Shown here piece after piece: positions 2,738-64,000 of a stretch of DNA of 64,000 nucleotides (position 1 is the stretch's first letter; every line of letters begins with the position of its first letter). The DNA lies in the IMG/VR virus record IMGVR_UViG_3300020048_000036, positions 1-64,000 of that record; one strand, 5' to 3'. The DNA comes from a virus. Under the pieces are notes generated by a model that searched no databases, had not been told where the DNA came from, and saw only the letters and a list, made by a program, of their open reading frames with translations. The translations under genes and the position numbers were made by a program.

Positions 2738-2764
2738 CTAACTCAACATAACCAAACAATACTA

Positions 2765-2795: not shown

Positions 2796-2807
2796 GGCGT
2801 ATAGTAA

Positions 2808-2847
2808 ATAAAAAGACCTGCCAACATAAAATATAGTTAACAGGTCT
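2808..2847 (-). terminator. Intrinsic terminator, convergent with 2765-2795
   Basis: minus strand AGACCTGTTAAC/GTTGGCAGGTCT stem followed by Ts. Confidence 0.65.
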
Positions 2848-8497: not shown

Positions 8498-8499
8498 TG

Positions 8500-32073: not shown

Positions 32074-32086
32074 CTAACTAATTACA

Positions 32087-32980: not shown

Positions 32981-32993
32981 AACCAAAAACCAA

Positions 32994-33152
32994 ATGGAAG
33001 AATTTATTATCACGGAAAATTTGCGGAAAGACCTAAGAACCATAATCTTAGCAAGCAAACAAAACGTAGCAACTACGGAAGAGGTAATAAAAATCCTCAA
33101 CCAACTACAACAATTAAAACCAGTTTCTAAAGAGGAATCACCCCAAGTATAA
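32994..33152 (+). CDS. 52-aa helical ORF MEEFIITENL... (not in track), possible fibre chaperone
   Basis: AAACCAAAAACCAA leader; TAA stop. Confidence 0.7.
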   Translation: MEEFIITENLRKDLRTIILASKQNVATTEEVIKILNQLQQLKPVSKEESPQV

Positions 33153-33161
33153 CAAACCAAT

Positions 33162-45187: not shown

Positions 45188-46267
45188 ATGGAAAACAACT
45201 ATAATAAATACCAAATGGGGGATTACTTGAACCAGTTCAACAACTTTCAGTATCCCCAATTCAACCCACAATACCGTCCTAATCCAGCCTTTCAAACGGG
45301 GCTGGCTTTTGGCGTTAATGCACCTTTGGGCGCAAAAGTAGGAACAACATTTGACCTACTTACCCAATCCTTGTTTAATCTCAACAACAAACTACAACCT
45401 TTTTTTCCGCAAAACAACTCTAATCAAAATATACAACAAGCAACAGCTACAAGTGGTACAACCCAACAACCCCAAACAAGGGAAAACCCACGTAGGGGAG
45501 GAGCCACAGCAATGTACAAAAATGGGGGTAAGAAAGCAAAAGGTTTTCCTAAAAGGGGACAATTTAACCAAATCGTCCCACAAGACCCAACACAACTCTA
45601 TCCTAACCAATTTGATTTAACCCCTAACCCTTATTGGCAGCAAGAACAACAACCACTACCTAACCAACCCCAATCTGATTTTGTGGATTTGACGATGGTA
45701 GATTATACAACTCCATCATCTGTAAGGGAAGAGCAAACTAGGGCTACTCCACAGGATAATAGGATGGGTGCTGCTAATATCGTAGGGGCTTCCGCAGCAG
45801 GGTTATCATTTGGGATGGACTTAGCCAAGAATATTGCGGGGGGAATAGGTGTAGGTAGACGTTCACAGTATGCTTGGGAACGGGCACAAGAACGTATGCG
45901 TGATGCTACTATCCAACAAGGTTATGAAAAAGATAGGATGGACTTGTTTAATCAAGGCTATTTACAGACTACCAATTATATGGCACAGGATGGTGGGCAA
46001 ATACCAGTATCATTAGATGGGTTAAACCAATTTCCAAAACAACCTGTTATTGTTCCAAGTAACAATATAACTATGCAAGGTATCCCATATGATGTAATGG
46101 CATACCCAAATAATGATGCGCCACAGCTAATGAAACCTGACCAACAATACAGTTTTCCAAATTCAACCCAAGTACTTGAAAAACCCGTAATGAAGAACGG
46201 TGGTTTGGTAAAACTAGAGGAAGGTGTTTACTTTGACCCAACAACCCAAGAATTTATCTTACAATGA
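45188..46267 (+). CDS. Internal virion cargo protein (Q/N/P-rich)
   Basis: low complexity, (Q/K)xGG motifs, hydrophobic GAANIVGASAAGLSFG segment; follows muzzle. Confidence 0.7.
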   Translation: MENNYNKYQMGDYLNQFNNFQYPQFNPQYRPNPAFQTGLAFGVNAPLGAKVGTTFDLLTQSLFNLNNKLQPFFPQNNSNQNIQQATATSGTTQQPQTRENPRRGGATAMYKNGGKKAKGFPKRGQFNQIVPQDPTQLYPNQFDLTPNPYWQQEQQPLPNQPQSDFVDLTMVDYTTPSSVREEQTRATPQDNRMGAANIVGASAAGLSFGMDLAKNIAGGIGVGRRSQYAWERAQERMRDATIQQGYEKDRMDLFNQGYLQTTNYMAQDGGQIPVSLDGLNQFPKQPVIVPSNNITMQGIPYDVMAYPNNDAPQLMKPDQQYSFPNSTQVLEKPVMKNGGLVKLEEGVYFDPTTQEFILQ

Positions 46268-48234
46268 GAAAATGCTCCGCAAATAGTCCAGAAGGTAAAA
46301 AACTAATGGACAAATATAAAAACATGATAATGCAGAACGGTGGTATTGCCCCCGAAGAAGTATTGTCTGGAAGCGTAGTTACAGGTGTAGGCCCCACCCA
46401 ACCTTCAAACGTGGAAGTGGAAGGAGAGGAGTTTATTCAAACCCCCGAAGGAAACGTAACAAAAGTTAAAGGTAAACCACATACGGAAGGTGGCGAGAAA
46501 CTTAATTTGCCCGAAGGTAGTAAGATACTTTCAGACAACATTAAGATTGGTAAGGATATGAAAAAAATGCTTGAGGAAGAGTATAATGTTAACCTCACGA
46601 CAACTACAACTTTTGCAGAAGCCCATGATAAAATCAAAAAGAAACTAGGTGTAACAGATGTAGAGGAAGAGCAAGAAAATTATTTAAACCTTCTCGCCAA
46701 AAACAAAGAAATAGAGGACGAAGGAACACAAACGGTAAACGAACAATTCCTCGCCAAAAAGATAAGGGAATCAGAACAAAAACTACAACTAAAAAAATCA
46801 CAGGAATCAGCAATATACAACACCTTATTTGAAGCACAAGAAAAACGCAAAAAATCAAAAGAGGATGTACAGGTAGAGGAAACCTATATTGACGAGGAAG
46901 AAGTACCAATGGCACAAGATGGGGGTTTTATAATTGCCCAAAACGGAACACAGACCCGTAGGCAAAAGATGGATGCTAATAAACCTGCTGGTACTACTAA
47001 TCAAACAGATTTATCTAATTTATTTACTCTTCCCGCAGGTAAACTAATAGACCAACTTACCCCCAAAGAAAGGGAAAAACTAAACCAAGATATAGCTGCT
47101 TGGATAACTTCTTTTAAGGAAACCCAAGGGGATAATTGGGTAAACGCACTTAACAACATTAGTTTTGTAAGTGGTAGCTCTAAAATACCAATTAGTCCTG
47201 CTACTAGGAAAGAACTAGGGATACCATTAAATTTAGATGAGGAAAAGGCTAATAAGATGTTAGCTGACTTACGTTTACAAGATATAAAAAACGAATTTAA
47301 CAATGCACTTGTTGTAGCGGGTATCCCCGCAGATGACATAGCAAAAATAACTTTTGCACCTGATAAAGTAACAGCGTATGAGGGATACCCTTGGGACCCT
47401 AAGAGGGGTAAAGAAGATTACCGAAAATGGCAAAATCTAGGTATTGAATTAAATACTTCCGCAACACCTACAACCCCTGAACCAAGAGAAGCAGCAACTC
47501 AAACAGAATTAGACCAACAACTACAACAAACCCCTTATCAAAAACCACCAGAGGACGTACTTGGTAGACCCTTCCCAATAGCAACACCATACAGAGGGTT
47601 ACCAAACCCCCTTATGACTACCCAACTGAACATGCCTGATGCGGAAATGGTTACGCCTATCAAGGTATCACCAGAGGAAGCAATAAGGGAAAACAACAGG
47701 GGCTTTGTTGCTGCAAGGGATGTTCTAAGTACTATGCCTGGCGCAAGTGTTGGCGCAAATATAGCAAACCTACTTGGACAAACACAAAACGTAAACAACC
47801 AAGCGGTAGCGGAAGCAAACAGACAGAACGCACAATACGCAATGCAAGCCCAAAACCAAAACCAACAGGTGGGAGCTAACCTAAGCCAAGCAAGGACACA
47901 AGCAATGGACATTTTCGGCAAGGAAAACCTGATGGCACTAGACAATACCCTAAACGATATTAGGAACTGGCAAAGCGTAATATCTACAGACCAAATAAAC
48001 GCACAACGTGAAGGTAGGCAAATGAACATGTTGGATGCACTTTCACCTGAATATAGCTTTGATATGTTCGGTAATGTGGTATTTACAGATACAAACCGTC
48101 AATGGTACCTACCTGAAAATTCTGTACAAGCACAATTGTATAATGGTACAACACAGCAACAACCTACACAAGAACAGATGTACCAACAGATGTACCAACA
48201 ATGGTTAAAATCAAACCAACAACCACAAGCATAA
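46264..48234 (+). CDS. Internal virion cargo protein
   Basis: NVEVEGEE...GKPHTEGG domain, xGG motifs, Q-rich tail. Confidence 0.7.
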   Translation: MRKCSANSPEGKKLMDKYKNMIMQNGGIAPEEVLSGSVVTGVGPTQPSNVEVEGEEFIQTPEGNVTKVKGKPHTEGGEKLNLPEGSKILSDNIKIGKDMKKMLEEEYNVNLTTTTTFAEAHDKIKKKLGVTDVEEEQENYLNLLAKNKEIEDEGTQTVNEQFLAKKIRESEQKLQLKKSQESAIYNTLFEAQEKRKKSKEDVQVEETYIDEEEVPMAQDGGFIIAQNGTQTRRQKMDANKPAGTTNQTDLSNLFTLPAGKLIDQLTPKEREKLNQDIAAWITSFKETQGDNWVNALNNISFVSGSSKIPISPATRKELGIPLNLDEEKANKMLADLRLQDIKNEFNNALVVAGIPADDIAKITFAPDKVTAYEGYPWDPKRGKEDYRKWQNLGIELNTSATPTTPEPREAATQTELDQQLQQTPYQKPPEDVLGRPFPIATPYRGLPNPLMTTQLNMPDAEMVTPIKVSPEEAIRENNRGFVAARDVLSTMPGASVGANIANLLGQTQNVNNQAVAEANRQNAQYAMQAQNQNQQVGANLSQARTQAMDIFGKENLMALDNTLNDIRNWQSVISTDQINAQREGRQMNMLDALSPEYSFDMFGNVVFTDTNRQWYLPENSVQAQLYNGTTQQQPTQEQMYQQMYQQWLKSNQQPQA

Positions 48235-48237
48235 TAA

Positions 48238-50886
48238 ATGGCAACAGCATTTTCGCAACCAACACAGTTTACACCATACGTTGAGAATTGGGATAAAGAC
48301 CTAGTTCAAAAAGCCTTGATGTACAAACAAGGCAAGTACGACCTCAACCGCCAAAAAATACAGAGCACAATCAACAGTGCTATATCATTGGATTTGGCTA
48401 AGGACGAGGATGCGGATTATCTTTATGGTAAATTGAAAGAAACACTTGACGTAGTAAACCAATATGGTTCAGGTGATTTGTCATTGGATTCCCGCACAGA
48501 CTATCTTCAAGGACACATATCATCAGTTGCGGATGATAACGTAATGAACGGTTACCTTGGAACACTTAAACTACGTAACATACAAAAAGAAGCAGCAGCC
48601 GCAAAGAAAGACGGGTTGTATAGTGATTTGAATTTTGCTTACTCTATGCAGGATGCCCAAAAATGGCTGACGGATGGTACTGTAGGTTCAGAATATAGTG
48701 GTAATAGTTCTTATGTTCCTTACTCTGATAACAACAAGAAATTCTTGGACATTATTAAGGAACTTAAACCAAATGTAACAGCAGTAAGGAGACCTAACGG
48801 ACAATATGAATACTACTCCGAAAATGAGGTAATTGAACCCGCAACCATAAAAGGGGCGATTGAATTGTTACTTGATTCAGACCCAATGGCAGCAAGACAG
48901 ATGCAAGTCAATGCTTGGGGCCAGTTTCAGGGTATGGATGATAATACTTTTTTCGCAAATGTTGGAACAACCGTAAACTCATTAAGAAACGGTGTACAAG
49001 AAGACATCAAAAAACTAGAACAGCAAAAGGATAAAATTGGGAATAACACAAACCCAAAAGCAATAGAACTACAAAAGTTAATTGACTATCAAAATGAGCA
49101 ATTAAAATATGTAGAAAAATTATCAACAGATAGAACTGCACTTGAAAACTTTATCTACAAAAAAAGCACCCTTAACGGATATGCTGATGTATTTGCCGTT
49201 TCCCGCACCAAATCCGAGATAACAACAAATGACGGTTATTGGAAACAACTTGATTACGACCTAGCCAATAAGAAACTTCTAATGGAAAAAGGGTCAAAAA
49301 TGTTTGATGTTTACAAAGAAATAAATGCTTTAAAAAGCGACAAGAAATATGCCGAAGCGGAAGGTTTGTGGAACATTGCATTGGATAATGGTATTTTACC
49401 CACAAAAAGGATTGTTAATGGTCAAGAAATAGATAATACTTACACAAATGATATAGTAAATTACGCATCTAACAAATTAGTAGCAACAGGACAAGTTATT
49501 AATGAGGATGTGGCTATAGATAAGTTACAAGACCTTAACCAAAAGAATACCGAACAATACAGTGATTTAAGTAACAAGGTAAGAAACCTCCTACAGCATA
49601 GGTCAGATATTGATATTAACACCTATATTAAAGGTAACAATACTACACCAACTCCTTTAATACCTACTGGTGGAAGTCCAGTTTTAGGGGCTTCTGAAAA
49701 TATTTTAGACCTTGATGCCAGTATTGCTTTTCTTCAAAGTAAAAATACTTATGGTGAATATACTGATGTTATAAGGGAGTATAAAAAGTTGCAAGGGAAT
49801 ATTACTAAGGTCACAGAGGCGGAAACAAGTATAAAAAATCTAGCTACCCCTAAAGTAAGTACTTGGTTAAATAATCCTACCCAAGGAAGTACTTTTAAAA
49901 TAGGTGATGAGGGAGTAATTTATGATAATGGGCAGTACTATAGAACTAAGAAAGAATTAGTGTTCGGTATGGGGCCATCGGGAACGGGTTCTGCTAGTGG
50001 GGGTACAAATTATCAATATATTAAGCAAGAAATGTTAACTCCTTCCCAAGTAATGAATTTTGTACAAAATAAAACAGCAGAAGGCCAAAATGATATTTAT
50101 TTTAATGACATTAATGTAATACCTGTAGAAAATATTAAAAAAACAGCGGAAGGGTTTTTAACTAGCAATATGACTGGTGTTATAGCAAACACACAAACCT
50201 ACAATGTAAATACCCAAGACCCTAATTCAATGATTATGTTTGGAGAAGCTATGGGTATAATAAATGCAAAGGGGTACAAGTCTAATAAAGAGGGGGACAT
50301 GTATCTATTTAATCAAGACCTTGATAAATTAAAAGAGAATTATCTCAATCCTAGTGCAACAGTTGATAAACCTATGTTGGACAAACCTATAAACATGGTA
50401 TTTGACCAAGAAAATGACCAAGTATTAATTACTGTAGGTTCAGGGGAAGAAATAGAAACAGTTGCAATTCCAAGAAATGAGTTATCATCTGCCCCTACGT
50501 TGTTAAATCAATATAATAGACTTGTTAACGAGTTTGAAACACAAGGTTTATTGGAGGCTGAAAAAATAAAAATAAATACCAATATAAACAAAGCAGGGGG
50601 GAAAACAACTGAACTTATAGATAATGTATTATTACCCATAGGGGATTTTCAAATACCTATTTCCGTTAACATTGTAGGTACTAAAAATAATGAGGTATAT
50701 AGTTACTCCCCTTCATACACTTTTGATTTAGATGGTAAAACTATTGTTCTTTCGCAAGAAGACCTTGCCCCATTTTATAATACCCCGCTGGTCTCCTCTA
50801 ATTTTGATAACATTTATACAACCACTACAAGTATAAGTAGTGATGTAATAATAGCTGCATACAAACGTAAGTACGGGATAAAGTAA
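48238..50886 (+). CDS. Ejection/cargo protein
   Basis: 882 aa, helical N-terminus, Cys-free. Confidence 0.7.
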   Translation: MATAFSQPTQFTPYVENWDKDLVQKALMYKQGKYDLNRQKIQSTINSAISLDLAKDEDADYLYGKLKETLDVVNQYGSGDLSLDSRTDYLQGHISSVADDNVMNGYLGTLKLRNIQKEAAAAKKDGLYSDLNFAYSMQDAQKWLTDGTVGSEYSGNSSYVPYSDNNKKFLDIIKELKPNVTAVRRPNGQYEYYSENEVIEPATIKGAIELLLDSDPMAARQMQVNAWGQFQGMDDNTFFANVGTTVNSLRNGVQEDIKKLEQQKDKIGNNTNPKAIELQKLIDYQNEQLKYVEKLSTDRTALENFIYKKSTLNGYADVFAVSRTKSEITTNDGYWKQLDYDLANKKLLMEKGSKMFDVYKEINALKSDKKYAEAEGLWNIALDNGILPTKRIVNGQEIDNTYTNDIVNYASNKLVATGQVINEDVAIDKLQDLNQKNTEQYSDLSNKVRNLLQHRSDIDINTYIKGNNTTPTPLIPTGGSPVLGASENILDLDASIAFLQSKNTYGEYTDVIREYKKLQGNITKVTEAETSIKNLATPKVSTWLNNPTQGSTFKIGDEGVIYDNGQYYRTKKELVFGMGPSGTGSASGGTNYQYIKQEMLTPSQVMNFVQNKTAEGQNDIYFNDINVIPVENIKKTAEGFLTSNMTGVIANTQTYNVNTQDPNSMIMFGEAMGIINAKGYKSNKEGDMYLFNQDLDKLKENYLNPSATVDKPMLDKPINMVFDQENDQVLITVGSGEEIETVAIPRNELSSAPTLLNQYNRLVNEFETQGLLEAEKIKINTNINKAGGKTTELIDNVLLPIGDFQIPISVNIVGTKNNEVYSYSPSYTFDLDGKTIVLSQEDLAPFYNTPLVSSNFDNIYTTTTSISSDVIIAAYKRKYGIK

Positions 50887-50895
50887 AAACCAACC

Positions 50896-53800
50896 ATGAC
50901 CCAAGAAGAACTAAACCAATTACTTACTACAAATACCCCTACAACTAACGTAGCTCCACAGGAACCATTGGATTTTAACAAACTGTTATCTTCTGATGCT
51001 CCCGTAGGACAACTTATAGGAACGGAGAAGTTTATTAAGAGGGATATATACAATCCCAACTTAACCAATGCTGTTAGACCAATAGCGTTTAATGACATCT
51101 ATGCTTATACTGGCCCCAATTCAGGTTTTTTCCGTAAGTACCCTACATTTACCCCAGGTGAAAACAACGAGGTTATAAGTGCTGCAAACCAAAGTGGTTG
51201 GGAACTAACAGGTAATACATTAATGACATTCGGTACATTAATGGGTAGCACTATTGCCAATTATTTTGGTTCTACTGCTGCTAACATAGGAAAAATTGCA
51301 TCAGGTGATTATGAAAATTTCTTTGACTCTGAACTTACTGAATTTGCGGCAGGTGTTACGGAAGGGGTACAATGGAAATACCCTATTTACTCTACGGCAG
51401 AAATGCAGCAATACGAAGCAAACAATGTAGGTGCAGGGGCTTCAATAGGTAAATTCATTCCTGGTATTTCACCAAATTTTGGCAGGTACTCCGCAAGGCT
51501 TTTAGGCCAGTTAGGTTTTTCCGCAGGTACAGTAGTTACAGCCATAGGAGAAGAAATAGCTTTGGCTGCACTTACAGCAGAGGCAGGTGGAGCAGGTGCA
51601 ATAGTTAACGCACCAAGACAATTGTACAAAGTATTTAGGTCTTTCTCACAAGTATTAAAAAATGCTGATAGACTTTCAGACCTATACAAAACTACAAATA
51701 CTCTTGAGAAAGTAGGTAAGTCAGGTGTGTTTCTGTTACGTGAGGCAAATAGGGCTACAGGTGAAGCTAGGCTAGAAGCATTAATGGCTTCCGAAGCATT
51801 CAAGGTAAAAGAACTACAAGCCCTAGAAGAAAAAGGTATCTTTCCTACAGCAGAACAGCTTTTACAAATAGAGTTACAATCAGAGAAAGTAGGTAATGCT
51901 ACATTCAACTGGAACATGCCTATACTTATGGCTAGTAACATTATTATGTTAAACAACATAATAAAACCCAAGTCACTAAGTACTGGAAAACTAACATCAG
52001 AAGCCTCAAAGGTAGCTTTTAAAGATGGTGTATGGAGCACAAATAAGGAACTTATTAAAAATGGTTTCTTAAAATCCGTAGACCCTGCTTGGAACTGGTT
52101 GAAAAAAGCACCAGCGGTAACTTTTTCGGAGGGTATAGAAGAGGTAGCACAAGGTATAGGTAGCCGTGCAGCAGAACAATACTATAGTCTTCAAAATACC
52201 GATGCAGGTAAATCCAATACTAATTTTATACAATCTTTGGGAACCGAATTTTCACGTAGTTTCAGTACTGGTGAGGGTTGGGACGAGTTTGTGTCAGGAG
52301 CACTCACAGGTCTTTTGATTGGTAGTGGTCCTAACGCAATGAAAGTAAGGGAAGAGTATAGGGGCGCAACGGAAGTACGTGACCTACTTAACACCACTGC
52401 TAATGATTTAGTAAACAGTATCAACTACAAGAACCTCACAGAACAGGTTAACATGGCGGGAAAATCCGCAAATGAACTTGAAAAAGGTAATGTAAAGGCT
52501 GCAAAGGATATTCGTAATCAAGCTATGGTGGGTTTCTTCCAAGTAGCAAGGCGCACGGGAAAAGACAAAGAAGCAATCACAGAACTTATAGGTTACCTTA
52601 ACAACGCAAAAGACGAGAACAGGTTAGCAGTAGAGGAAATAACCAAGGACAAGACTATTGAGGAGTACCAAGCAGAACTTAATAAAAAATACGATGAGTA
52701 CACCAAGATAGCGGATATGTCCGAAAACCTGTTTTCAAAGGAACTAACTTCGGGGACAAAGATTGACCAAGGTGTAGCGGAGTTTGTAAAGAACCAATAT
52801 GTTACTGCTTTGATGGGCAGTTCTGATGCTCGTGAAAGGGTAGCTAGTATTAGTAGGGACCTAAATACCCTAACCCAAAACTCAAAGAACTCGTCTAAAA
52901 TAAATGAACTTACAAGGAACGTATTTGATTCCGAGGAACTTGCCCGTGTTATAGGCCAAGTAAGTTCTTCTATTGAAACTACAGAGGATTTCTTAACTAA
53001 TGTAAAAATAACCAAAGAAGAGCGTTACGCAAAGAACCAAGAACTAGAAGCGAATAGGAAACACCTTGCTAACCTACAATTGGTTAATGATGCGTTGTAT
53101 GGTACAAAAGAGAAATACTCTCCTGCACAAGCAAGTAAAAGGATTGTAGAGGCAATTAAGAATTATGACTCTAACGTAAATGTAGAGGAAGTTCAAAAAT
53201 TGGTAGATGACATGGTTCAACTTGAAACAGAGAATGAACAATTGACCTTTTTCGCCAACTACCTACACAATCCCCAATTCAGAAGCAAGTTTTATAATGC
53301 TGCAAAGGACATGCAGGATAAGTATAACAAAACACCCAAAGAAACTTCCGCACAAGAAACTGCACCGACAAGTCCAGAACAAGTAAATGAAACTTTAACT
53401 AATTCAGGACTTACAAAGGATAGTGTTGATACAGCAGTAACAGAGCTAAACAAAATCACCGAAAATGACGGGGTGTTTGAATATGCAGGTAATAGTTACG
53501 ATACAATAGAGGAAGCAAGAGAAGCAGTAGTAGAGAATTTACCAGTATCAGATAGGGCTTCCGCAAGAACAGTATTACCATCATTAGTACAACAAGCAGA
53601 AGCACAAAACGCACCACAAGAAATAGAGCGTGTTTCCACGGAACCAGTTACCCAAGCCGAATATGATAAATTCAAGGAAACCAATACAATCCCCGAAGAT
53701 GTAAGGACAAAATTATTTAATATTGACGGTGCTCTAACAACTCAAGAACAGGAGATGTTTGATTTCTTGCTTGAGGAAGATAAGAGTACCCAAACAGTAA

Positions 53801-56800
53801 CTAACACGGAAAAAGTACTTACGCCAAAAACAATGGCAGATGTACGTAAAGACCCGTTGGGATGGGGAGCTGGTTCCGATTCTGGAATATTAACTAACTA
53901 TTATAATGTAGTTGTAGGAAGGATATATGATAGTTTACCTTTTGCGCTTAAAATTTTGGGCCTAAAAACCTTACTTAAAGACTTTAAAGGAATAACCATT
54001 TCTACAATAAACCTTAATGACAATGTAATTAAGGACAATGTAAATACAATTGAAAAAGTTACGGTTGAACAAATAAGGACTGATATAGATGATAGAGGTT
54101 ATTCAGTTATCAAGGATAACAAAGGTAGGTTAATTATAGTAAGCAGGGGTAATAGGCTTGAAGCCAAAAATCTAATATCCAAACCAGTTGCAGAGGGTGG
54201 ATTAGGGTTGTATATGAACCCAAGTGCATACGGACGTTTTACGGAAGTACGTCAAGGTGGGCCAAAGGGAAAAACAATAGCTAGTTCTTTTGGTGAGGAG
54301 TCTTTTAATGTAGAATCATCCCGTGCAATAGCAACCGTTAGGAAGGGGGACAAGATTCAAGTATTCATTCCAAATAACAAATTTAACCAAGACTTATTAA
54401 AAACATTCCGCAAAGCCAAGGATGTAGAAAAAGCTTTTGCAAAACTAAAAGAAAGCCTTGTAATTGAACTTCGTAAAAACGGAGCCACAATAGGTGTGAT
54501 GAGGGCGGGGGATTACTTTAACGAGGATTCCAAAATGTCTCCAAAGGTCAAGTCATTTAGGGACAAAGCCGTAACAACCGCTTTGCTTACCCAACTAGGA
54601 CAAGAGGATATTATGATTGGTACTGTAGGTGTGTCAAGTATTGTAGCACAGCATACAGTAAATGTAAATGATAATGGTGATTATGTTTTCACCACACTTT
54701 CGGATTATGAACAATCCCAAAAGAGGAACAAGGACATCAAAATCACCTATTTTGTTGGTAATACCACCGAAACCGCTATTGATAAGAATGGTAAAGAGAT
54801 TTCCCGCAGCAGCGTTGGACGTGTAAAATCATTTATACCAAATGCTATTTATGTACAAATCAAGAACACCAAGACAGGTGAAGAGGCTTTGTTACAGGCA
54901 GTTGCGGAAGAAGCCCTAACATTTTCGCAAGAAGACTTGAAGAACAATGATTTTAAACAACAACTATCAATAAACCTACAACCCTCTGAAAGCCCATTAA
55001 TATCAAAAAGGGTAGCAATAGACGAAAACACATTCTCATCTAGTACAAGGGAAGAAACAAACAAAGCGGAACTAAGGCAAGAACTTGAAACAGCTCTTTC
55101 CGAAAGTCAAAATCTTACACTAGATTTGGGTGGAGTACAATTACCTTTAACTAATGTTGAAGCAGACTATGACTTACAAATCGTAACAGGTGTTGACCCT
55201 AATGGAAATAACCAAGTACTAAGTTTCCTTAATATAACTGGTGTATCGGAATATATAGATGTCCCGCAAGAAACCACTACAACCAATGAAGTTGTAAATG
55301 AAGAAACAACTAATGAGGTTGTGACTGACCCCACCACCACAACGGAACCACTTGAAGAAAGTATTCCTGAACTAAATACTGAACAAAAAGAAGATTGGAT
55401 AAAAGAAAACGGAGAGGTAGGAAAAACATATACGTTAGAAGATGGAACAACATTAGTTATCCAAAGGAAAGATGAAAACGGAACCGTAATTACAAAAGGT
55501 GGTTTCCTAATCAGGTTCAAACCAGATGGCTCCGAAGAAAGCATAGATATTCTAAAAACACTTGAAGAAATAGAAAATACAACTTTTTCGGAAGAAAATC
55601 TCTATAATATTTGGATTTCTCAAAAAGAAGGTTTATCTTTGAGGGATGAAATGATATTAGTAGTAAACAGTGAAAGAATAGCTAAGTTTAAAAAGACACA
55701 AGAACAAGTAATAAAGGACTTACAAAACGGATATGACAACTATCTTCCAATTGGCCTAAAGGATTTGTTAACAGCTTTAAATGTTAGACCAAATGAATTG
55801 ATGTTGGTACTTTCGCTAACCAACTTGGACTTGGTTCAAAAAGGAATAGAGGTGACTTCATTAGAACAACTAATGACAGAAGCCCAAGTTCCAACCGAAG
55901 TATCAGAAAGTATACAAGAGGTATTGTCTTTTGGAAGTTATATAGCTTTGTTCAATTTAGTAACAAGCGGAATACAAGTAAATGTAAGCAACAGAAAGTA
56001 TGAGCAAGGAGTACAACTTATGATGGAATTTGCCGACACTAACGCAGAAAATGCTATTAATGTTGAGATTTCCCAACAAGACGAGGAACTTATGGAAGCG
56101 ACCAATAAATTCGCAAAAGGCTTTAAATCACTTATGGGAAAACAAGGCTTGTTCGTGAAGGGATTAAACACATTAAGTGAATTAGCTAGTGACCAGATTA
56201 AGAGTGTTGCTACTGCTGTTAAAAACTTTGTGCTTACAAGCAATTATGACCAAGGGGATAATTTCATTAAGGCTTTTGTAACATTAAATCAAGCACTCCG
56301 TCCACATGGACTTGAAGTAAACTTGGAAAACCTGATAAAAGTAGAACCAAAAGGAATGTTTGACGTGGGCGTTGATTTCATACAGATTAACGATACAAAA
56401 AACTTCCTTAAAGAGTTCGATGATATATTGATGCAAAAGGAAAACCAAGAAAGGATTACCAACGGTAAGAACACAATTTTGATTAAGAGGGATAACGGTG
56501 GTCTATTTGAACTCCCAATACGTCAGATAAGCACTGTAATGAACGAAAACGAACAAAACGATAGTGTATACTTAAATGACATTTTAGAGCCTGTAGGTGT
56601 CTCTATTGAGGATATTTACGTAATTGCTAACCATACTGTTAACGGAAACGCAACTAGTCTTATTGAACGTAGTATTAGGAGGGTTAACCAAGAAACATTG
56701 GAAGCAAGGGAATCCTTTGTAGTTAATAGGGAACCAACAATAAATGGAAGTTCGCAAGAGGAATATTTTAACAAGAGCAAAGTAGAGAAAGAAGTAAAAA

Positions 56801-56817
56801 CCAAAACTTGTAGTTAA
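50896..56817 (+). CDS. Giant virion ejection protein (1973 aa)
   Basis: EGIEEVAQG-type N-domain with hydrophobic Gly/Ala helices; no RNAP catalytic motif seen. Confidence 0.75.
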   Translation: MTQEELNQLLTTNTPTTNVAPQEPLDFNKLLSSDAPVGQLIGTEKFIKRDIYNPNLTNAVRPIAFNDIYAYTGPNSGFFRKYPTFTPGENNEVISAANQSGWELTGNTLMTFGTLMGSTIANYFGSTAANIGKIASGDYENFFDSELTEFAAGVTEGVQWKYPIYSTAEMQQYEANNVGAGASIGKFIPGISPNFGRYSARLLGQLGFSAGTVVTAIGEEIALAALTAEAGGAGAIVNAPRQLYKVFRSFSQVLKNADRLSDLYKTTNTLEKVGKSGVFLLREANRATGEARLEALMASEAFKVKELQALEEKGIFPTAEQLLQIELQSEKVGNATFNWNMPILMASNIIMLNNIIKPKSLSTGKLTSEASKVAFKDGVWSTNKELIKNGFLKSVDPAWNWLKKAPAVTFSEGIEEVAQGIGSRAAEQYYSLQNTDAGKSNTNFIQSLGTEFSRSFSTGEGWDEFVSGALTGLLIGSGPNAMKVREEYRGATEVRDLLNTTANDLVNSINYKNLTEQVNMAGKSANELEKGNVKAAKDIRNQAMVGFFQVARRTGKDKEAITELIGYLNNAKDENRLAVEEITKDKTIEEYQAELNKKYDEYTKIADMSENLFSKELTSGTKIDQGVAEFVKNQYVTALMGSSDARERVASISRDLNTLTQNSKNSSKINELTRNVFDSEELARVIGQVSSSIETTEDFLTNVKITKEERYAKNQELEANRKHLANLQLVNDALYGTKEKYSPAQASKRIVEAIKNYDSNVNVEEVQKLVDDMVQLETENEQLTFFANYLHNPQFRSKFYNAAKDMQDKYNKTPKETSAQETAPTSPEQVNETLTNSGLTKDSVDTAVTELNKITENDGVFEYAGNSYDTIEEAREAVVENLPVSDRASARTVLPSLVQQAEAQNAPQEIERVSTEPVTQAEYDKFKETNTIPEDVRTKLFNIDGALTTQEQEMFDFLLEEDKSTQTVTNTEKVLTPKTMADVRKDPLGWGAGSDSGILTNYYNVVVGRIYDSLPFALKILGLKTLLKDFKGITISTINLNDNVIKDNVNTIEKVTVEQIRTDIDDRGYSVIKDNKGRLIIVSRGNRLEAKNLISKPVAEGGLGLYMNPSAYGRFTEVRQGGPKGKTIASSFGEESFNVESSRAIATVRKGDKIQVFIPNNKFNQDLLKTFRKAKDVEKAFAKLKESLVIELRKNGATIGVMRAGDYFNEDSKMSPKVKSFRDKAVTTALLTQLGQEDIMIGTVGVSSIVAQHTVNVNDNGDYVFTTLSDYEQSQKRNKDIKITYFVGNTTETAIDKNGKEISRSSVGRVKSFIPNAIYVQIKNTKTGEEALLQAVAEEALTFSQEDLKNNDFKQQLSINLQPSESPLISKRVAIDENTFSSSTREETNKAELRQELETALSESQNLTLDLGGVQLPLTNVEADYDLQIVTGVDPNGNNQVLSFLNITGVSEYIDVPQETTTTNEVVNEETTNEVVTDPTTTTEPLEESIPELNTEQKEDWIKENGEVGKTYTLEDGTTLVIQRKDENGTVITKGGFLIRFKPDGSEESIDILKTLEEIENTTFSEENLYNIWISQKEGLSLRDEMILVVNSERIAKFKKTQEQVIKDLQNGYDNYLPIGLKDLLTALNVRPNELMLVLSLTNLDLVQKGIEVTSLEQLMTEAQVPTEVSESIQEVLSFGSYIALFNLVTSGIQVNVSNRKYEQGVQLMMEFADTNAENAINVEISQQDEELMEATNKFAKGFKSLMGKQGLFVKGLNTLSELASDQIKSVATAVKNFVLTSNYDQGDNFIKAFVTLNQALRPHGLEVNLENLIKVEPKGMFDVGVDFIQINDTKNFLKEFDDILMQKENQERITNGKNTILIKRDNGGLFELPIRQISTVMNENEQNDSVYLNDILEPVGVSIEDIYVIANHTVNGNATSLIERSIRRVNQETLEARESFVVNREPTINGSSQEEYFNKSKVEKEVKTKTCS

Positions 56818-56818
56818 C

Positions 56819-59800
56819 ATGGCTTGTACAATTAAAAGAGATGAAAACGGAATAATAAGTGTACTAGCTGAAAATGGTAATAAATCACTATTATACCAAT
56901 CTATACTTAAACTGCCCTTCACCAAAAGTGAAGAGGATGCGCTTAATTATTACCAAGCAGCGTTAAAATACAAAGGTTCAGATTATCTAGTTGACATTAA
57001 TAATGAGCCTATTTTAATGTTTGCCTCACTTTCCGCATCAAACACCCTCGCTCTACCAAATAAAACAGTACTTACGTCATCTTATACAGAAGCACTTGCC
57101 CAAGATAAGGAGCAGAAAGGTATTGAAGTAGGATTTTTAAAGAAAAGCAAACCACTTGATTTAGGTCAAATCTCCGACAATAACTTCTTTTCAAAAATGC
57201 GGAACATTTCCGCAAGGACCAACGGTCAAGTGATAGGACACAATGAAAGCGGAACAATACTTGTATCAGACCCATCAACAAATAACTTCAAACCAATTAC
57301 AAAAGTAAACCCCCAAGCAATTGATAATACTCTAGGTGGTTTTATACAAAATTTGGTAAGCAGTAACTTAATCAAAGCCGAGAAAATCCCCGCAACAAAC
57401 CTACAACAAGAAGAATCAACTGTAGTTTTTAAGGTATTTGATATGGGAAACAACGACATATCAGTAATGGCTATTGAGGAAGGAAGAAAAATAGGTGTAC
57501 TACGTTTAATAAAGAAAGGGGATATAATCCAAGTACGTGAAGTAAGAGTAGATAAGGGTAATAGAAAGAAAGGTATAGGAAGGGAACTGTACTTTACTGC
57601 AAGGGAAGAACTGGGCCAGGATATATACTCAGATGCTTTCCATTCCCCCGAAGTTATTATGTTGTGGGAGAGTTTAGTACGTGATGGTTTTGCTGAAAAA
57701 ATAGGACCCAAAACTACACCTGTTACTAAAAGAACAGAGGAAGTAAGTAAAGGTGTAGAAGCCGTTAGGAAAATAGCAGCAGAGTATAAAAAGTTGAACA
57801 AAATTAAAGGAACTGCACCTCTTGTTGTTACTGCGCTGGAAACTACTGTTTCAGAAGAAATGGCAAGAGAGTACGAGTTAGTAGAAGATAGGCCCAATAA
57901 CCCAGAAGTAAAGAAATCATATGCTGCTTTAATTGCAGAAACCATAGCACAGTATGATTTTATTGTAGGTAAAGGATTACAAGTAGAAAAATATCTAGGA
58001 AAAGGGGAACCTTACCAAGATTCTAAAGAAATGTTGGAAGATTTAAGAACCAATAATACTCTTAAATTCTTACCAAACGATGAGGCATTTGGCGAAGGTG
58101 CAGAAATATACAAAGACAGTATTGGTTTACAACCTAGTGGTAGATTTTTGGCAGATGGTTACCAATTAACTAACTCAGAAGTATTTAGGATTGTACATGA
58201 TTACTTTGGGCATGGTATACTGGGAAATCAATTTGGGGCAATCGGTGAAGAAAATGCAACACTACAACACTTGGATTTATACTCTGACGAAGCAAAACCT
58301 GCTGTTGTGTTCCAAACAAGGGGACAAAATAGTTGGGTAAACTTTTCTGGGGAAAATAAAGAAGTATTTTCAATGTTTGCCGAGGCAAAAAAGCTTAAAA
58401 ATGAAGGTAAATCAGAAGAGGCAAAAAAAGTTTTAGATAAAGCAAGGGAAGCGTTTAAATTTGCAAAACCAAAAGAAGGTATATTTAAAAACAAATACAA
58501 TTTCAAAAAATATGACACAGCAAGAAGAATCAGAGAGCAAGAACAAATCGAAAGAGCTAACGATGCCAGAACGAATGAAAGTAATGACTTACGAAACTCA
58601 TTACCAATCATTAGTAAAAACAATGTTACAACGAGGGGCATCAACAGAAGAAATAGACAAGGAAATACAAAAATACAGTCACATGTATTAAAAAATGTAA
58701 CTGAGGTATCTTTGTCCAGTGAAGCCCAAGAAGCCATTAAAAAGGCTTTTCCCAAAATAACGACTTTTCCTAAAATATTTGAAATAAAAGATGGAGCAGT
58801 ATATAGGGACTTACAGATAAAAGGACTTGAAGGAGTACCTATGTCTAGTTCTGTAACTATACATTCTACCGAAGAGTACAACACTATGAGGATGTTTGTA
58901 ACTGAGGATGGTTACACAGGTATTACTATAACAAAAGATGGTCACTTAGGAGGTGCATTTAGTAGTGAAAAATCAGGTAGAAGTGCAGATTTAGCGCAAC
59001 TAATGGTTATAGGGGTTAAGGAAGGAGCTACTAATGCAGAAGCATTTGATACATTTTTACCCGATTACTATACTAAGTTTGGGTTCAAAGCAGTAAGTAC
59101 TGTAGCTTTTAATGAAGAAGTTGCCGAGGGAAATGGTTGGAACTACGAAGAGTACAAAGGATACAATAACGGTAAACCTGATATAGTTCATTTTATCTAC
59201 GATGGGGGAGATAGGGCCACAATAGAGGAAAGGTTAGACCAATTTGACACGTACAGTGATTACCAAAAAGAGGAAGTTAAGAAGTTTGATAAAAACTCTT
59301 ATGATGAATCATATAAGTACATGGAAGTAGAGGTTGTAAAAAGGTACAACTTTGAGAAAGAACAAAATAGAACAGGGTACAAACTAACTAGTGTTCCAAG
59401 TGATATTAAATTCCAAACCTCTACTGTAGAAGAAGTTGTACAAGAAGAAGTAATAGATGAAGTAATAGGTAGGTTAAAATCAGCAGGACTAACAAGCAAC
59501 ATATTTCAACTTTCGCAAGAAGAAATCACCCAAAAATTAGAGCAATTAGGTAGCACACCTGTAAACAGTATTTCTAAAGGCTTTATAGTAACGGAGAACG
59601 GTCAGAAAAACGTGTATCTTAATAAAGATACTATGACATTGGATACACCTTTGCATGAGGTTGCGGGACATGCCATGCTGGATTTTGTAAAGGTAAAGGC
59701 AAGGAATATCTATGATAGGGGTATGACATTGGTAAGCCAAGAACTCCGCAAAGAAAATTCAAGCATCCAAGACGTAATAGATTATGTAAGAACCACACAA

Positions 59801-62293
59801 CCTACTTTAACAGGGGAAGCGTTAAATAATGAAATCCTAGCTGAATATATTGGTAGGGTAGGTTCAGAACTTATACAGAACCAAAAAAATCCCGCACTAA
59901 CAAAATGGCTAAGTGATTTATGGAATTTTGTAAAGAAATCCTTGGGTATTTTTGACAAAAACTTTGACCTAAACAACGCTACAATAAGGGATTTTGCGGA
60001 AGCAATGAGTATATCTACACTTAGAGGAGATAACGTAGCAGAACAGGCTCAAAACTACTTTGGAAGGGTTGCCGACAGACTTCCCCTAACCCTAGCGGTG
60101 TTCAATACAAAACCTTTCCAAGACTTAATAGGAAAACAAGTAAATCCAGTTACAATACAACAACTCCTAAACCAATCAGGAATAAAACAAATAGAAAAAG
60201 ACCTGATTAACCAAATAATCACAGACAACTACACTGGACAAAAGAAAATAGACTACAACGAACTAGAAGCAACGGTAAGGGCTAATATAATGCCATTAGA
60301 AAGGGTTATCACATCATCCTACGCTAATTATGGTATGAAAAATCTAGGTGATGGTAATTACGGTGATGCAAACACGCTTATCCTTAACGCACCTATAGAA
60401 CATGGAATTACAGGTCACTTTTCGGATGCATTCAAAGCCAGTGGTCGTAAAAACATCAAATACATACCTAAGCAATTAAACGACAATACTTGGGTAGCAG
60501 TAGAGGAAGGGTATGAAAGCCAAGCAAACAATAACAATATTTATCAGTTTGTAGGTACTGCTGGAACAAAAGAAGCTGTTGATAATTGGATTAATAACTA
60601 TGATGGAATAAAATATATTAAAATTGAAGAAGGAGTAAAAGTAAGGTATGAAGATAGCAGGGGGGTAATGCGAGATGCAACAGTGGTGTCTATATCCGAT
60701 AACAACGTAAAAGTAATAAATATAGTAGATGGTGAGTTTTACGAAGCGGATATATCAAATTTTAGACCTATTGGTTTAGATGCTGTACAAGAAATAAACA
60801 AAGGCATGTTTGGTCATATCCGTGTATGGCAAGACAATACAGATTTCTATGTAGCAGAGCTTCAATCGGACTACTTTCAAAAATATAATGCGAGGAAAGA
60901 GTTTTTGGAAAATAATGAAGAGTTTAAAGAAATAAATAAAGAGTATAATACTCAAAAAGAAGAAATACAAGTTGATAAATTAAACTATAAACGACTTAAA
61001 GCAACAGAGGATGCGTTAGCTATTATAGAAAGTAATAGTAGAGTTAAAATTCAGCCTTATAAGTTGGAATTATACGATGGTACTTTAGACGAGGAATATT
61101 TATGGATTTTTGTTGATGGTAACCCTATAATTAAAGGCAGAGTAGCTACTAGTACTGGATATAGTACAGATTATCAAAGGGATTATTTGATAAAAGATAG
61201 AAACCTTGAATCTTTGTTTGAGTTGCTTGGGGAAGATTTCCAAGTTAGTTTCAACAAACAAATGCAAAAAAACCTTGATAATTTTGACCTTCAAGGGAAG
61301 TTATTAGAAAAAGAATACAACAAAAAAGTAGAAGCGTTACTAAGTGAATTACCACTACAACAAAAACAATTCATAGCATCCCAAAAAGAATGGGAAAAAC
61401 GTATGGTAAGGGAAGCTATAAAAGAAGCAGCATTATCAGGAGCAGAGACACTAAGGTTCCCTACACCATATACGTTAAGTGTTATTGAGGGTTATATTGA
61501 GGGTGCAAATGGTAGTGCTGTAGAGTTAGTAGGTACTAATGAGATAGGACAAGACGTTTACTATCTTGGTGAATTATATACTATAATGAATACTTACTAT
61601 GATGACAGTATAGACATTGCACCAGCAAATCAAGTAGATTCTGTGGATTTAGATACTTACATAGAATCAGAACAAGAGTTTAGGGTTGGTGATTATCTAT
61701 ATGAAATAACTGTTGGTAATACATATTCTTACAAAGAAGTTAAAAATTTATTTTCGGAAGCCCAACTTTACCTTGAAAATGAGTTAGAGAGTATAGCAGA
61801 AGAGCAGGGTATAGAAGTGGATGAAGCAAAATTAACCTTAACTCAAGGTATGGTTGATGATATTACGGAAGATATAAAAAGAAGTATTAAAGAGAATATA
61901 GATTATAGCCCTGAAAATTATTTTACCGATATGGGATATGATAATGTAGTGCTGTTTAATAATACTATTTATTATACTAGAGGTAGTGTTTCACTAGAAA
62001 ATGTATCTACTGCTACGAATCTTTCTGATAAAGATGATTTTACTATTGAAAGCCTAGATAACACCCAACAAACAGTAGCTAGAAAATATGAAGAGATAGC
62101 TGCAATTCTTACAAAAGAAAGGGGTGAAGATAATGTGGAAATTATAACAGATGATAACGGATTTGATTGGTATGAAACCAAGATACTATCATCGGAAACC
62201 CAAAACCCAGTTATAGCTTTTCAAAAATCAATTGACCAAGTTGTATCGGAAATGATTAGAAGCGGAGAAATTTCAGCAAACTGTAAATTATAG
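56819..62293 (+). CDS. Giant polyvalent virion protein (GNAT, VHDYFGH domain, second GNAT-like, zincin-like, HxR..ELQSD domain)
   Basis: VRVDKGNRKKGIGRELY; FRIVHDYFGH; AFDTFLPDYYTKFGF; DTPLHEVAGH...NEILAE; FGHIR...ELQSD. Confidence 0.75.
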   Translation: MACTIKRDENGIISVLAENGNKSLLYQSILKLPFTKSEEDALNYYQAALKYKGSDYLVDINNEPILMFASLSASNTLALPNKTVLTSSYTEALAQDKEQKGIEVGFLKKSKPLDLGQISDNNFFSKMRNISARTNGQVIGHNESGTILVSDPSTNNFKPITKVNPQAIDNTLGGFIQNLVSSNLIKAEKIPATNLQQEESTVVFKVFDMGNNDISVMAIEEGRKIGVLRLIKKGDIIQVREVRVDKGNRKKGIGRELYFTAREELGQDIYSDAFHSPEVIMLWESLVRDGFAEKIGPKTTPVTKRTEEVSKGVEAVRKIAAEYKKLNKIKGTAPLVVTALETTVSEEMAREYELVEDRPNNPEVKKSYAALIAETIAQYDFIVGKGLQVEKYLGKGEPYQDSKEMLEDLRTNNTLKFLPNDEAFGEGAEIYKDSIGLQPSGRFLADGYQLTNSEVFRIVHDYFGHGILGNQFGAIGEENATLQHLDLYSDEAKPAVVFQTRGQNSWVNFSGENKEVFSMFAEAKKLKNEGKSEEAKKVLDKAREAFKFAKPKEGIFKNKYNFKKYDTARRIREQEQIERANDARTNESNDLRNSLPIISKNNVTTRGINRRNRQGNTKIQSHVLKNVTEVSLSSEAQEAIKKAFPKITTFPKIFEIKDGAVYRDLQIKGLEGVPMSSSVTIHSTEEYNTMRMFVTEDGYTGITITKDGHLGGAFSSEKSGRSADLAQLMVIGVKEGATNAEAFDTFLPDYYTKFGFKAVSTVAFNEEVAEGNGWNYEEYKGYNNGKPDIVHFIYDGGDRATIEERLDQFDTYSDYQKEEVKKFDKNSYDESYKYMEVEVVKRYNFEKEQNRTGYKLTSVPSDIKFQTSTVEEVVQEEVIDEVIGRLKSAGLTSNIFQLSQEEITQKLEQLGSTPVNSISKGFIVTENGQKNVYLNKDTMTLDTPLHEVAGHAMLDFVKVKARNIYDRGMTLVSQELRKENSSIQDVIDYVRTTQPTLTGEALNNEILAEYIGRVGSELIQNQKNPALTKWLSDLWNFVKKSLGIFDKNFDLNNATIRDFAEAMSISTLRGDNVAEQAQNYFGRVADRLPLTLAVFNTKPFQDLIGKQVNPVTIQQLLNQSGIKQIEKDLINQIITDNYTGQKKIDYNELEATVRANIMPLERVITSSYANYGMKNLGDGNYGDANTLILNAPIEHGITGHFSDAFKASGRKNIKYIPKQLNDNTWVAVEEGYESQANNNNIYQFVGTAGTKEAVDNWINNYDGIKYIKIEEGVKVRYEDSRGVMRDATVVSISDNNVKVINIVDGEFYEADISNFRPIGLDAVQEINKGMFGHIRVWQDNTDFYVAELQSDYFQKYNARKEFLENNEEFKEINKEYNTQKEEIQVDKLNYKRLKATEDALAIIESNSRVKIQPYKLELYDGTLDEEYLWIFVDGNPIIKGRVATSTGYSTDYQRDYLIKDRNLESLFELLGEDFQVSFNKQMQKNLDNFDLQGKLLEKEYNKKVEALLSELPLQQKQFIASQKEWEKRMVREAIKEAALSGAETLRFPTPYTLSVIEGYIEGANGSAVELVGTNEIGQDVYYLGELYTIMNTYYDDSIDIAPANQVDSVDLDTYIESEQEFRVGDYLYEITVGNTYSYKEVKNLFSEAQLYLENELESIAEEQGIEVDEAKLTLTQGMVDDITEDIKRSIKENIDYSPENYFTDMGYDNVVLFNNTIYYTRGSVSLENVSTATNLSDKDDFTIESLDNTQQTVARKYEEIAAILTKERGEDNVEIITDDNGFDWYETKILSSETQNPVIAFQKSIDQVVSEMIRSGEISANCKL

Positions 62294-62296
62294 ATT

Positions 62297-62344
62297 ATGG
62301 GATGTGGATGTAGTAAACCTAAAAAACCAAAACCAAAGAAGTAA
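62297..62344 (+). CDS. 15-aa micro-ORF MGCGCSKPKKPKPKK
   Basis: fills the gap between two giant genes: starts 3 nt after one stop and ends 1 nt before the next ATG. Confidence 0.55.
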   Translation: MGCGCSKPKKPKPKK

Positions 62345-62345
62345 C

Positions 62346-64000
62346 ATGGCGTGTACTTATAATTTCAAAGGAATAGAATATAATACAAAGAAACAACTTG
62401 CTGATGCAGTTGCACTTGAATTTACTAACACTACAACATCACCTAACAAAATGATGTTTGAGGTTAATGGTAAGGTAGGTGAAAACGAAGCAAGACTTTC
62501 CGCAAGAAACAGGTTCGGAACAGACGAATTTCTTACTTTTGTAGAAAAAGAAGATAAAACGTATATGTTAGTAGATGAACGTCTGTTTAACGAGCAGACA
62601 GGTTCACAACGTCTAATATACAATGACCAAGGACAACTTGTAGAAGTGGATATTGATGAAATGATTAACAAGATGAACAGAGGTCAATTAAAAAACATCA
62701 ACGGCTCACTTTATGATACAATCCAAGCAAGGATAGCGGATAAAATGATAAAATCCGCAAAGGAAGAGTTAAAGAACGAGCAAGAAGGAACTACCCAAGA
62801 TTTAATGGATAGCCTTGCAGATTTTGCAGCTAACATGGGGATAACCGTAACAACCCTTGAAGAGTACAAAGCTAGTTATGAGGAACGTAACGGTATTCCA
62901 ATAACCACCCAAGCACTAGCAGATATATTCAACAAAACCATTGCATTAGGTGAGAACGCTACATTAGAGGACTTTACGGAAGAAATAGCCCACTTCGCAG
63001 TTAAATATTATAAGAACCAAGATGAACTTACACGCCTATTAGAAAAGGTAAACCAAACAGGTACCTACCAAAGATACGCAGAACAATATAGGACTGCTTA
63101 CTCAAAGGACTATTCAGGTGAAGCACTTGAAAATAAAGTACGTGAGGAAGTGTTAGGTAAACTTTGGGCAGAGAATATATTAAATAACTACAACACACAA
63201 AACAAAGGTCTTAACGAAACTGGAATCATAAATAAATTACAAGAGCTTTTTAATAGGTTCTTGGATTTGTTCCGCATTACAGATAGTAACCAAGCGTTTT
63301 TTAGGGAATTTGGCAAGACACTAGATAATCTAGCACAACAAACCACGTCCAAAAGGTACGAAAGTTTTTCACCTGTTGATTCTAAAGAAGTATACTATAG
63401 CCTTTCCGCAGAACAAAAGAGCGTAGAAAAGAGTTTAACTAATATACATGGAGATTTAGTTAATAAATATAAAGCAATACACAAAGATAACAAATCTTTA
63501 TTAAGGGACAGGAACACAAGACTTGCCGAAATAGCAGATAACATTAAAAACGCTTTTTACCTAAAAGCCATACAACGTGTTATAGCTATGGAAACAGATG
63601 ACATGCGAAAAGCCTTTAACGCATTAAGTAATGCTAGGATTGCAGTAGAGGAAATCTTGGACAAAAAGAAACAACTAGAAGGTTCCACATATGTAGCCCC
63701 AACCCAAGAAGAAAAGAGTAACATGATTGCCAAGGAACTAGGGGACGTTAATATAGCTAACCTAACCGTATTTAACCGTAATGTAGATGAGGTAATAGGC
63801 AAGTTACGTGCGGATATAGATTTTATCGCCAAAAACGATAAAAATATTAAGAGGGAAGACATAGCTTCCGTAAACCGCAGTCTTGAATCATTGGCTAGGT
63901 TGAAAGGTGAAGTTGGTCCAGATTTGCTTAGTATGCAACGCAATCTCGTGTACAACCTTATTTTGAAGAACTACCTTAATGAAGGTATAAGCATGGAACT
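62346..64000 (+). CDS. Giant virion protein, N-terminal part only (runs off the window); zincin-like motif; may be an RNA polymerase subunit
   Basis: open from ATG 62346 to the window end; MACTYNFKG start; TEEIAHF...REEVLGK. Confidence 0.75.
   Translation, partial: MACTYNFKGIEYNTKKQLADAVALEFTNTTTSPNKMMFEVNGKVGENEARLSARNRFGTDEFLTFVEKEDKTYMLVDERLFNEQTGSQRLIYNDQGQLVEVDIDEMINKMNRGQLKNINGSLYDTIQARIADKMIKSAKEELKNEQEGTTQDLMDSLADFAANMGITVTTLEEYKASYEERNGIPITTQALADIFNKTIALGENATLEDFTEEIAHFAVKYYKNQDELTRLLEKVNQTGTYQRYAEQYRTAYSKDYSGEALENKVREEVLGKLWAENILNNYNTQNKGLNETGIINKLQELFNRFLDLFRITDSNQAFFREFGKTLDNLAQQTTSKRYESFSPVDSKEVYYSLSAEQKSVEKSLTNIHGDLVNKYKAIHKDNKSLLRDRNTRLAEIADNIKNAFYLKAIQRVIAMETDDMRKAFNALSNARIAVEEILDKKKQLEGSTYVAPTQEEKSNMIAKELGDVNIANLTVFNRNVDEVIGKLRADIDFIAKNDKNIKREDIASVNRSLESLARLKGEVGPDLLSMQRNLVYNLILKNYLNEGISME

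Follow-up and report, generated by a model that had tools for sequence, protein, structure and literature searches.

Our analysis concerns the first 64 kb (the window) of the complete genome of a phage recorded in IMG/VR as IMGVR_UViG_3300020048_000036, which has 130,638 bp and direct terminal repeats, and in particular three very large proteins encoded one after the other towards the end of this window, here called A, B and C. Their cysteines lie only at the ends that face a neighbour in this order, namely at the C-end of A, at both ends of B and at the N-end of C. The same parity is conserved in distantly related phages, the cysteines are lost at the junction where B and C are fused into one protein, and B itself is built of conserved end modules around a middle that differs among phages. 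These observations suggest, with a probability that we place at about 0.6, that A, B and C are internal virion cargo joined head to tail through their terminal cysteines, most likely by disulfides, forming a linear thread; we infer from the comparison of sequences the bond, the chemistry and time of its formation, and the threading and release of the chain. An original prediction, made from the letters of the window, had proposed that terminal cysteines join consecutive proteins of its 45-64 kb part from C-end to N-end. This idea stands for A, B and C, with support from the parity, its conservation, the fusions and a similar signature in the cyanophage A4, and falls for the other proteins of that region.

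Terminal cysteines of proteins A, B and C and of their relatives

The three proteins are encoded as follows, as open reading frames (ORFs) with lengths in amino acids (aa):

50896 to 56817, + strand: protein A, 1973 aa, 219 kDa, with Cys1972, the penultimate residue (codon 56809-56811), as its sole cysteine
56819 to 62293, + strand: protein B, 1824 aa, 206.5 kDa, with Cys3 (56825-56827) and Cys1822 (62282-62284) as its only cysteines
62346 to 64000, + strand, the ORF running on to 67550: protein C, 1734 aa, 198 kDa, with Cys3 (62352-62354) as its sole cysteine

The C-end of A reads ..KTCS, B starts with MAC.. and ends with ..NCKL, and C starts again with MAC... Because an MxC N-terminus is conserved in the family, the ATG at 62346, and not the GTG at 62304, is the likely start of C. 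Of the cultured phages, phi17:2 and phi4:1 of Cellulophaga (Lightbulbvirus) and the epsilon-type crAss-like csAssE-Sib are nearest to the phage, at ~24% protein identity, and weaker protein matches extend to many crAss genomes. No close DNA relative was found by megablast of the 44-64 kb region against the phage collection.

Counting cysteine positions over crAss-like orthologs, as the original prediction had suggested, finds the terminal cysteines of A, B and C conserved. In phi17:2, gp039 has its cysteine as the last residue, gp038 has C4 and C516 of 517 residues, and gp036 has C3. The same parity appears in phi14:2, where g067 ends in cysteine, g066 has C3 and C2179 of 2180 residues and g065 has C3; the MAC start of its gp66, which the original prediction had named, is indeed present in the sequence. 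crAss001 follows with C2339 of 2341 residues in gp47, C5 and C2404 together with one internal cysteine in gp50, and C5 in gp49. csAssE-Sib shows this A-B-C arrangement as well, and so do six metagenome contigs (L005-L008, L013 and L014) with C homologs of 25-50% identity, the pattern being kept down to ~20% identity. Every A-family homolog has a single cysteine, at the last or penultimate residue.

The relationships behind this comparison are distant. By blastp, A matches phi17:2 gp039 (E = 7.5e-12), a 2208-aa protein of csAssE-Sib (1.4e-9) and crAss001 gp47 (3e-9), and finds no direct match in phi14:2 g067. Similarly, C matches phi17:2 gp036 (E = 6e-28) and crAss001 gp49 (1.7e-8) and reaches by tblastn genes of crAss genomes annotated as ‘putative RNA-polymerase subunit’; it has no blastp match to phi14:2 g065, though the latter holds the same position in the chain. 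For the C homolog of csAssE-Sib (L004, OR575929; 18746-25148), GenBank gives two overlapping coding sequences of 281 and 1885 aa. The 65 IMG/VR loci related to this phage have one ORF of ~2,140 aa instead, starting with M-x-S-T-C, and the split is probably a frameshift or an annotation artefact. On contig L005, a 130-aa ORF upstream of A (2634-3026) also has a single, penultimate cysteine (..GKGCR).

For the C family a wider census was possible. Searching 1.84 billion representatives with a profile built from the C-terminal part of C retrieved 1,579 relatives, and the best profile matches, together with those found earlier, provided 134 representatives of at least 1,600 aa. A cysteine lies within the first 8 residues in 128/134 of them, at position 3 in 98, and this N-terminal cysteine is the sole one in 114/134. 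By contrast, none of the 134 has a cysteine in the last 8 residues, and the internal cysteine rate is 0.011%. Cys3 is among only 10 invariant columns in an alignment of 60 C-family sequences with 17-50% identity. As for the six exceptions, the four that were examined all turned out to be artefacts: two proteins are cut off at the edge of a contig, in another a run of N interrupts the gene call, and in the last the start was mis-called; the corrected N-termini of the latter two read MSC.. and MPSC.., respectively. The 60-row alignment of C also found 80 loci of 13 lineages in IMG/VR, where searches for related loci with the single C protein or with a 4-row alignment had found none. All 12 evaluable lineages keep the rule, and A and B conform wherever they are visible. 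Among them, a large epsilon-type group from the gut keeps it although B and C are ~6 kb apart and separated by unrelated, Cys-rich genes.

Gene fusions provide another view of the same junctions. Ten long C-family representatives (2,505-4,974 aa) are B-C fusions, with an internal copy of the core of the N-terminal module described below at ~1,930-2,130 aa from the C-end, where a separate C would start. These proteins have no cysteine at the fused junction and keep Cys3 at their own N-terminus, which faces A. Since the outer ends of the chain never carry a cysteine and the fusions lose those of the junction, the pairing would be between neighbours rather than with a third partner. A two-member chain exists in L023/L026 (68-15502), in which a protein of 2,959 aa with a penultimate cysteine only precedes a 2,182-aa C homolog with Cys3 only; this suggests that B is fused to one neighbour in that lineage. 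Certain phages have the three proteins as a single polyprotein (Drobysheva et al.). Gene arrangement is variable as well. In crAss001, gp47 lies on the strand opposite to gp50 and gp49, and in L013 a 184-aa gene with a faint EcoRI-methylase match (7952-8506) is inserted between A and B, leaving their cysteines unaffected.

Cysteine depletion of the cargo block

The structural module of the genome runs from terminase, portal and a major-head-like protein through many tail genes to a virion protein of 2123 aa, after which come six large + strand ORFs (45188-67550), here called the cargo block, with A, B and C as the last three. The remaining ORFs of the block and the set of genes used for contrast are:

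45188 to 46267, + strand: cargo-block ORF of 359 aa with 0 Cys, matching the N-terminal part of phi17:2 gp041 and not a member of the chain
46264 to 48234, + strand: cargo-block ORF of 656 aa with a single cysteine, Cys4 (46273-46275), matching the remainder of phi17:2 gp041
48238 to 50886, + strand: cargo-block ORF of 882 aa with 0 Cys and no family match
22258 to 45117, + strand: contrast set, made up of genes of the tail and of external virion proteins, whose 7,168 aa include 145 Cys (2.0%)

The six ORFs of the block hold 5 Cys in 7,428 aa (0.067%), compared with 121 expected from the rate in the other ORFs of the genome, 1.63% (Poisson P ~6e-45), and the continuation of C beyond the window to 67550 adds none. 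In-frame TGY represents 0.07% of the block codons versus 1.6% and 4.5% in the two off-frames, with ~1% expected from position-specific base use; the in-frame value being far below those of the off-frames, the depletion of cysteine is selected and not a product of base composition. The few cysteines left are not scattered. All five lie at most 4 residues from a terminus (chance ~1e-11), where 0.8 would be expected at the background rate (P of 5 or more = 0.0013). They are the same five that the original prediction had listed, and each of its positions is correct (C4 of the ORF at 46264, C1972 of that at 50896, C3 and C1822 of that at 56819, and C3 of that at 62346). Its description of the external virion proteins at 22-45 kb as Cys-rich also agrees with the contrast set, in which the 2123-aa protein at 38746, directly before the cargo block, holds 39 Cys, though a few ORFs have none. 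The cargo block is also poor in His and Trp, at 0.30 and 0.55 of the genome level, respectively, and richer in Gln, Asn and Ala.

Depletion of this kind is found in the ejected proteins of other podophages. The virion RNA polymerase (RNAP) of N4, gp50, has 0 Cys in 3,500 aa, in agreement with the original prediction, which had cited it as Cys-depleted, and gp50, gp51 and gp52 have 0 Cys in 4,294 aa in total; T7 gp15 and gp16 have 0 Cys in 2,065 aa. As these proteins of N4 and T7 are free of cysteine, the purge appears general to ejected proteins, and the paired terminal cysteines would be a special addition to it. T7 gp14, an ejection protein, has a lone cysteine at residue 2 (MCW..) without a facing partner.

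C4 of the ORF at 46264 had been included in the proposed linkage code. Its position is occupied by V, I and I in orthologs at 77, 56 and 42% identity, respectively. Because it is not conserved and no upstream C-terminal cysteine faces it, we rejected it as a member of the chain. The 359-aa and 656-aa ORFs overlap by ATGA and jointly match the single 895-aa gp041 of phi17:2; near relatives share this split, their orthologs beginning at the same place, and there is no pair of cysteines at the split junction. Within the contrast set, three consecutive ORFs of 145, 297 and 256 aa (31636-33932) start with MAC, MNC and MKC. Each of them has 8-9 of its 9-11 cysteines within the first 60-75 residues, which makes them possible Cys-knot or disulfide-rich proteins of the tail or fibre hub.

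Middle and end modules of protein B

Protein B holds the position that belongs in phi14:2 (g066, or gp66) and in crAss001 (gp50) to a two-barrel virion RNAP, but it appears to carry a variable payload instead. It has no two-barrel RNAP motif, no DFDxD and no similarity to either protein by blastp, and a D[FY..]DxD motif is found in none of A, B and C. The DFDKD of phi17:2 gp039 was considered as an RNAP site of the A family and rejected, as the motif is not conserved. A search for a T7-type RNAP (PF00940) gave no match in the genome of the window phage, and none in the control genomes either.

The B proteins of relatives span 355 to ~2,470 aa. About 190-300 residues at the N-end and 35-65 at the C-end are kept in them, and their middles differ. 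At the C-end, the tail of B reads ..EIEA.CK[LI] in the clade of the window phage. At the other end, B and many C proteins share an N-terminal module (N-module), M-[A/S]-C-x-[I/V]-x-[R/T]-[N/D]..G.I..V...NG..S.L[F/Y], followed by a helix ending ..AL..Y. An AlphaFold2 model of residues 1-150 of B predicts a moderately confident small domain at 1-70 (pLDDT 70-87), which comprises a beta-hairpin, two helices and one strand, Cys3 being placed just before the first strand. Foldseek found no meaningful match for this modelled domain in the PDB, and phmmer searches of PDB sequences with A, B, C, the 2123-aa tail protein and the portal gave no match.

In the middle of B, residues 307-509 match genes annotated as ‘lysin’ and ‘large polyvalent protein’. 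A GNAT match stays below threshold, and B reaches no threshold of the PolyVal-type Pfam families (Kinase-PolyVal, ART-PolyVal and the like). Proteins at the B position of relatives carry PF18762 and PF18760 (Kinase-PolyVal, ART-PolyVal), and the B proteins of contigs L006 and L008 pass the threshold. Long and multi-domain, and with its 307-509 stretch matching such genes, B resembles the polyvalent proteins of phages and conjugative elements; Cys-bearing conserved end modules have not, to our knowledge, been described for the latter.

Judged by its sequence, the middle link is here not an RNA polymerase but a swappable, effector-type payload with conserved end modules, which is the new finding of this analysis. 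Since the middle link is not always an RNAP, the clasp formed by the terminal cysteines would be independent of its identity. Tentatively, and with somewhat more doubt than confidence, we propose that the end modules act as a general coupling adaptor, such that any payload placed between an M-x-C module and a ..C-x(0-2) tail would join the covalent injected thread. This would explain how the middle link can have such different sizes and be an RNAP in some phages and a kinase, an ADP-ribosyltransferase or a GNAT-type effector in others. If true, it would constitute a natural, redox-released and modular protein-delivery chain across Crassvirales and their marine relatives.

Proposed head-to-tail linkage, its alternatives and known systems

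By analogy with their homologs, A, B and C are probably packed and injected by the phage. Mass spectrometry has identified homologs of A and C as proteins of the virion (PMC10172136), and the presence of homologs in virions is indicated by mass spectrometry of phi14:2, by the structural-protein annotations of phi17:2 and phi4:1, and by crAss001. Moreover, cargo of the crAss001 type has been argued to unfold partly in order to pass constrictions under 50 A (PMC10172136). In the mechanism that we propose, the C-end cysteine of A would bond Cys3 of B and the cysteine near the C-end of B would bond Cys3 of C, a disulfide being most likely in both cases, with one linear thread of 5,531 residues and ~624 kDa as outcome. 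The short M-[A/S]-C N-module would probably dock the protein before it by its C-terminal tail (..K.C.). Oxidation of the thiols would follow when the capsid has closed over the cargo or when the virion has left the cell. The purge of all other cysteines, as in the ejected proteins of N4, T7 and A4, would prevent wrong or knotting cross-links. With bonds only 0-4 residues away from the chain ends, the linked proteins would be able to pass the narrow tail channel unbranched and partly unfolded, in a fixed order and a 1:1:1 ratio, and the reducing host cytoplasm would then separate A, B and C.

Several points weigh against this proposal. In the window phage and in crAss-like phages generally, the bond is deduced from sequence comparison and from the A4 precedent, and the packaging of A, B and C in the virion from distant homologs (21-25% identity). 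The cargo is not resolved in the crAss001 maps (PMC10172136), and in A4 the bond has been described as stabilising a folded, symmetric pre-ejectosome ring and not a thread (PMC12002296). A complex prediction for the last 150 aa of A and the first 150 aa of B, with 7-row alignments, gave a score of 0.24 (mark 0.32). Some gut relatives carry 1-3 internal cysteines (crAss001 gp50, epsilon-type C proteins), and phi14:2 gp66 was purified with dithiothreitol. Furthermore, the proteins are made in a reducing cytoplasm and their disulfides have to form afterwards, which for gut phages means in an anoxic habitat. The tails of crAss001 nonetheless carry disulfides (PMC10172136).

The same inter-protein disulfides might instead have a static role, stapling a folded cargo core, or pre-ejectosome, with no ordered threading or redox release. 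A4, the only solved case, has its bond inside a folded C5-symmetric ring where it is called stabilising (PMC12002296), and the terminal position and the parity of the cysteines are equally compatible with a staple. However, the crAss001 cargo is without ordered density (PMC10172136), and the strictly linear A-B-C topology, the equivalence of fused and separate proteins and the location of the cysteines at the extreme ends correspond to the needs of a thread more than to those of a staple, which we consider unlikely. We find it improbable that the paired terminal thiolates share a metal ion, the alternative that the original prediction had offered, or engage in another, non-disulfide chemistry. 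Parity indeed indicates pairing only and not its chemistry, but each junction would offer just two thiolates, the block has little His, the usual co-ligand (0.30 of the genome level), and in the A4 structure the link is a simple disulfide (PMC12002296).

Each terminal cysteine could also attach to a partner other than the neighbouring cargo protein, such as the portal, the capsid interior, a DNA end or a lipid. Nothing specific points to this, apart from the lone Cys2 of T7 gp14, which has no obvious partner, and it fails to explain why A has no N-terminal cysteine, why C has no C-terminal one (0/134), and why both cysteines of the junction disappear jointly in B-C fusions while the Cys3 facing A remains; we regard it as very improbable. 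Finally, the window genes do abut (stop at 56817, start at 56819), so that the pattern might be put down to chance or to a constraint on the nucleotides where genes meet, for example start/stop context or translational coupling. Yet the pattern survives opposite strands (crAss001), an inserted gene (L013) and the ~6-kb separation of the epsilon type, which excludes a constraint of gene junctions; it holds in >100 lineages below 50% identity, and the only cysteine plausibly due to chance, C4 of the ORF at 46264, is the one that is not conserved. With these comparisons, chance and junction constraint are effectively refuted. Among modifications, an intein or native chemical ligation was rejected, the cysteine being at residue 3-5 and not at residue 1; residue 2 is usually A or S, such that the N-terminus would read A-C or S-C after removal of Met. 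We also rejected modification of the lipoprotein or CaaX type, as there is no signal peptide or lipobox and the parity would be left unexplained.

No viruses of the human gut are more abundant than crAss-like phages, which have to bring megadalton amounts of protein, their RNA polymerase among it, through a narrow tail. A covalent thread of A, B and C, if true, would explain the order of the cargo, its stoichiometry and the completeness of its delivery, together with the interchangeability of gene versions, whether fused or split. In B, the modular ends suggest a route for swapping injected effectors, and by means of them foreign proteins could be loaded into particles. These cysteines are mentioned neither in the paper on the RNAP of phi14:2 nor in the structural atlas of crAss001 (PMC10172136), and a full-text literature search retrieved nothing else on disulfides in crassvirus ejection and no paper on this rule for crAss-like phages. 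The proposed head-to-tail disulfide chain of crAss-like phages would be undescribed.

The closest counterparts of the window block are gp47-gp50-gp49 of crAss001 and g067-g066-g065 of phi14:2, which share with it the order of the three proteins, the synteny after a large tail protein and the parity of terminal cysteines. The experimental precedent comes from the pre-ejectosome of cyanophage A4 (Anabaena phage A-4L), in which cryo-EM has revealed a disulfide between Cys1715 of gp27 and Cys5 of gp26 (PNAS 2025, PMC12002296). In the A-4L genome, gp27 has 1,717 aa with Cys1715 as its sole cysteine, and gp26 has 1,114 aa with Cys5 as its sole cysteine. As in the window, the sole cysteine lies at most 2 residues from the C-end in the upstream protein and among the first 5 residues in the downstream one. 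A, B and C have no blastp match at E <= 1 to A4 gp26-gp29, and for want of such similarity we regard A4 as an analogous case, in which the same signature has been verified by experiment. Unlike the three-member chain proposed for the window phage, A4 has one link between two proteins, and the authors of the A4 study put forward no rule of conservation, no purge of cysteine, no modular ends and no equivalence of fusions. The ejected proteins of N4 (gp50, gp51 and gp52) and T7 (gp15 and gp16) show no sequence similarity to A, B and C, and resemble the window block in that proteins leaving through the tail avoid cysteine. They differ from it in having no paired terminal cysteines, a clasp that appears particular to crAss-like phages and A4.

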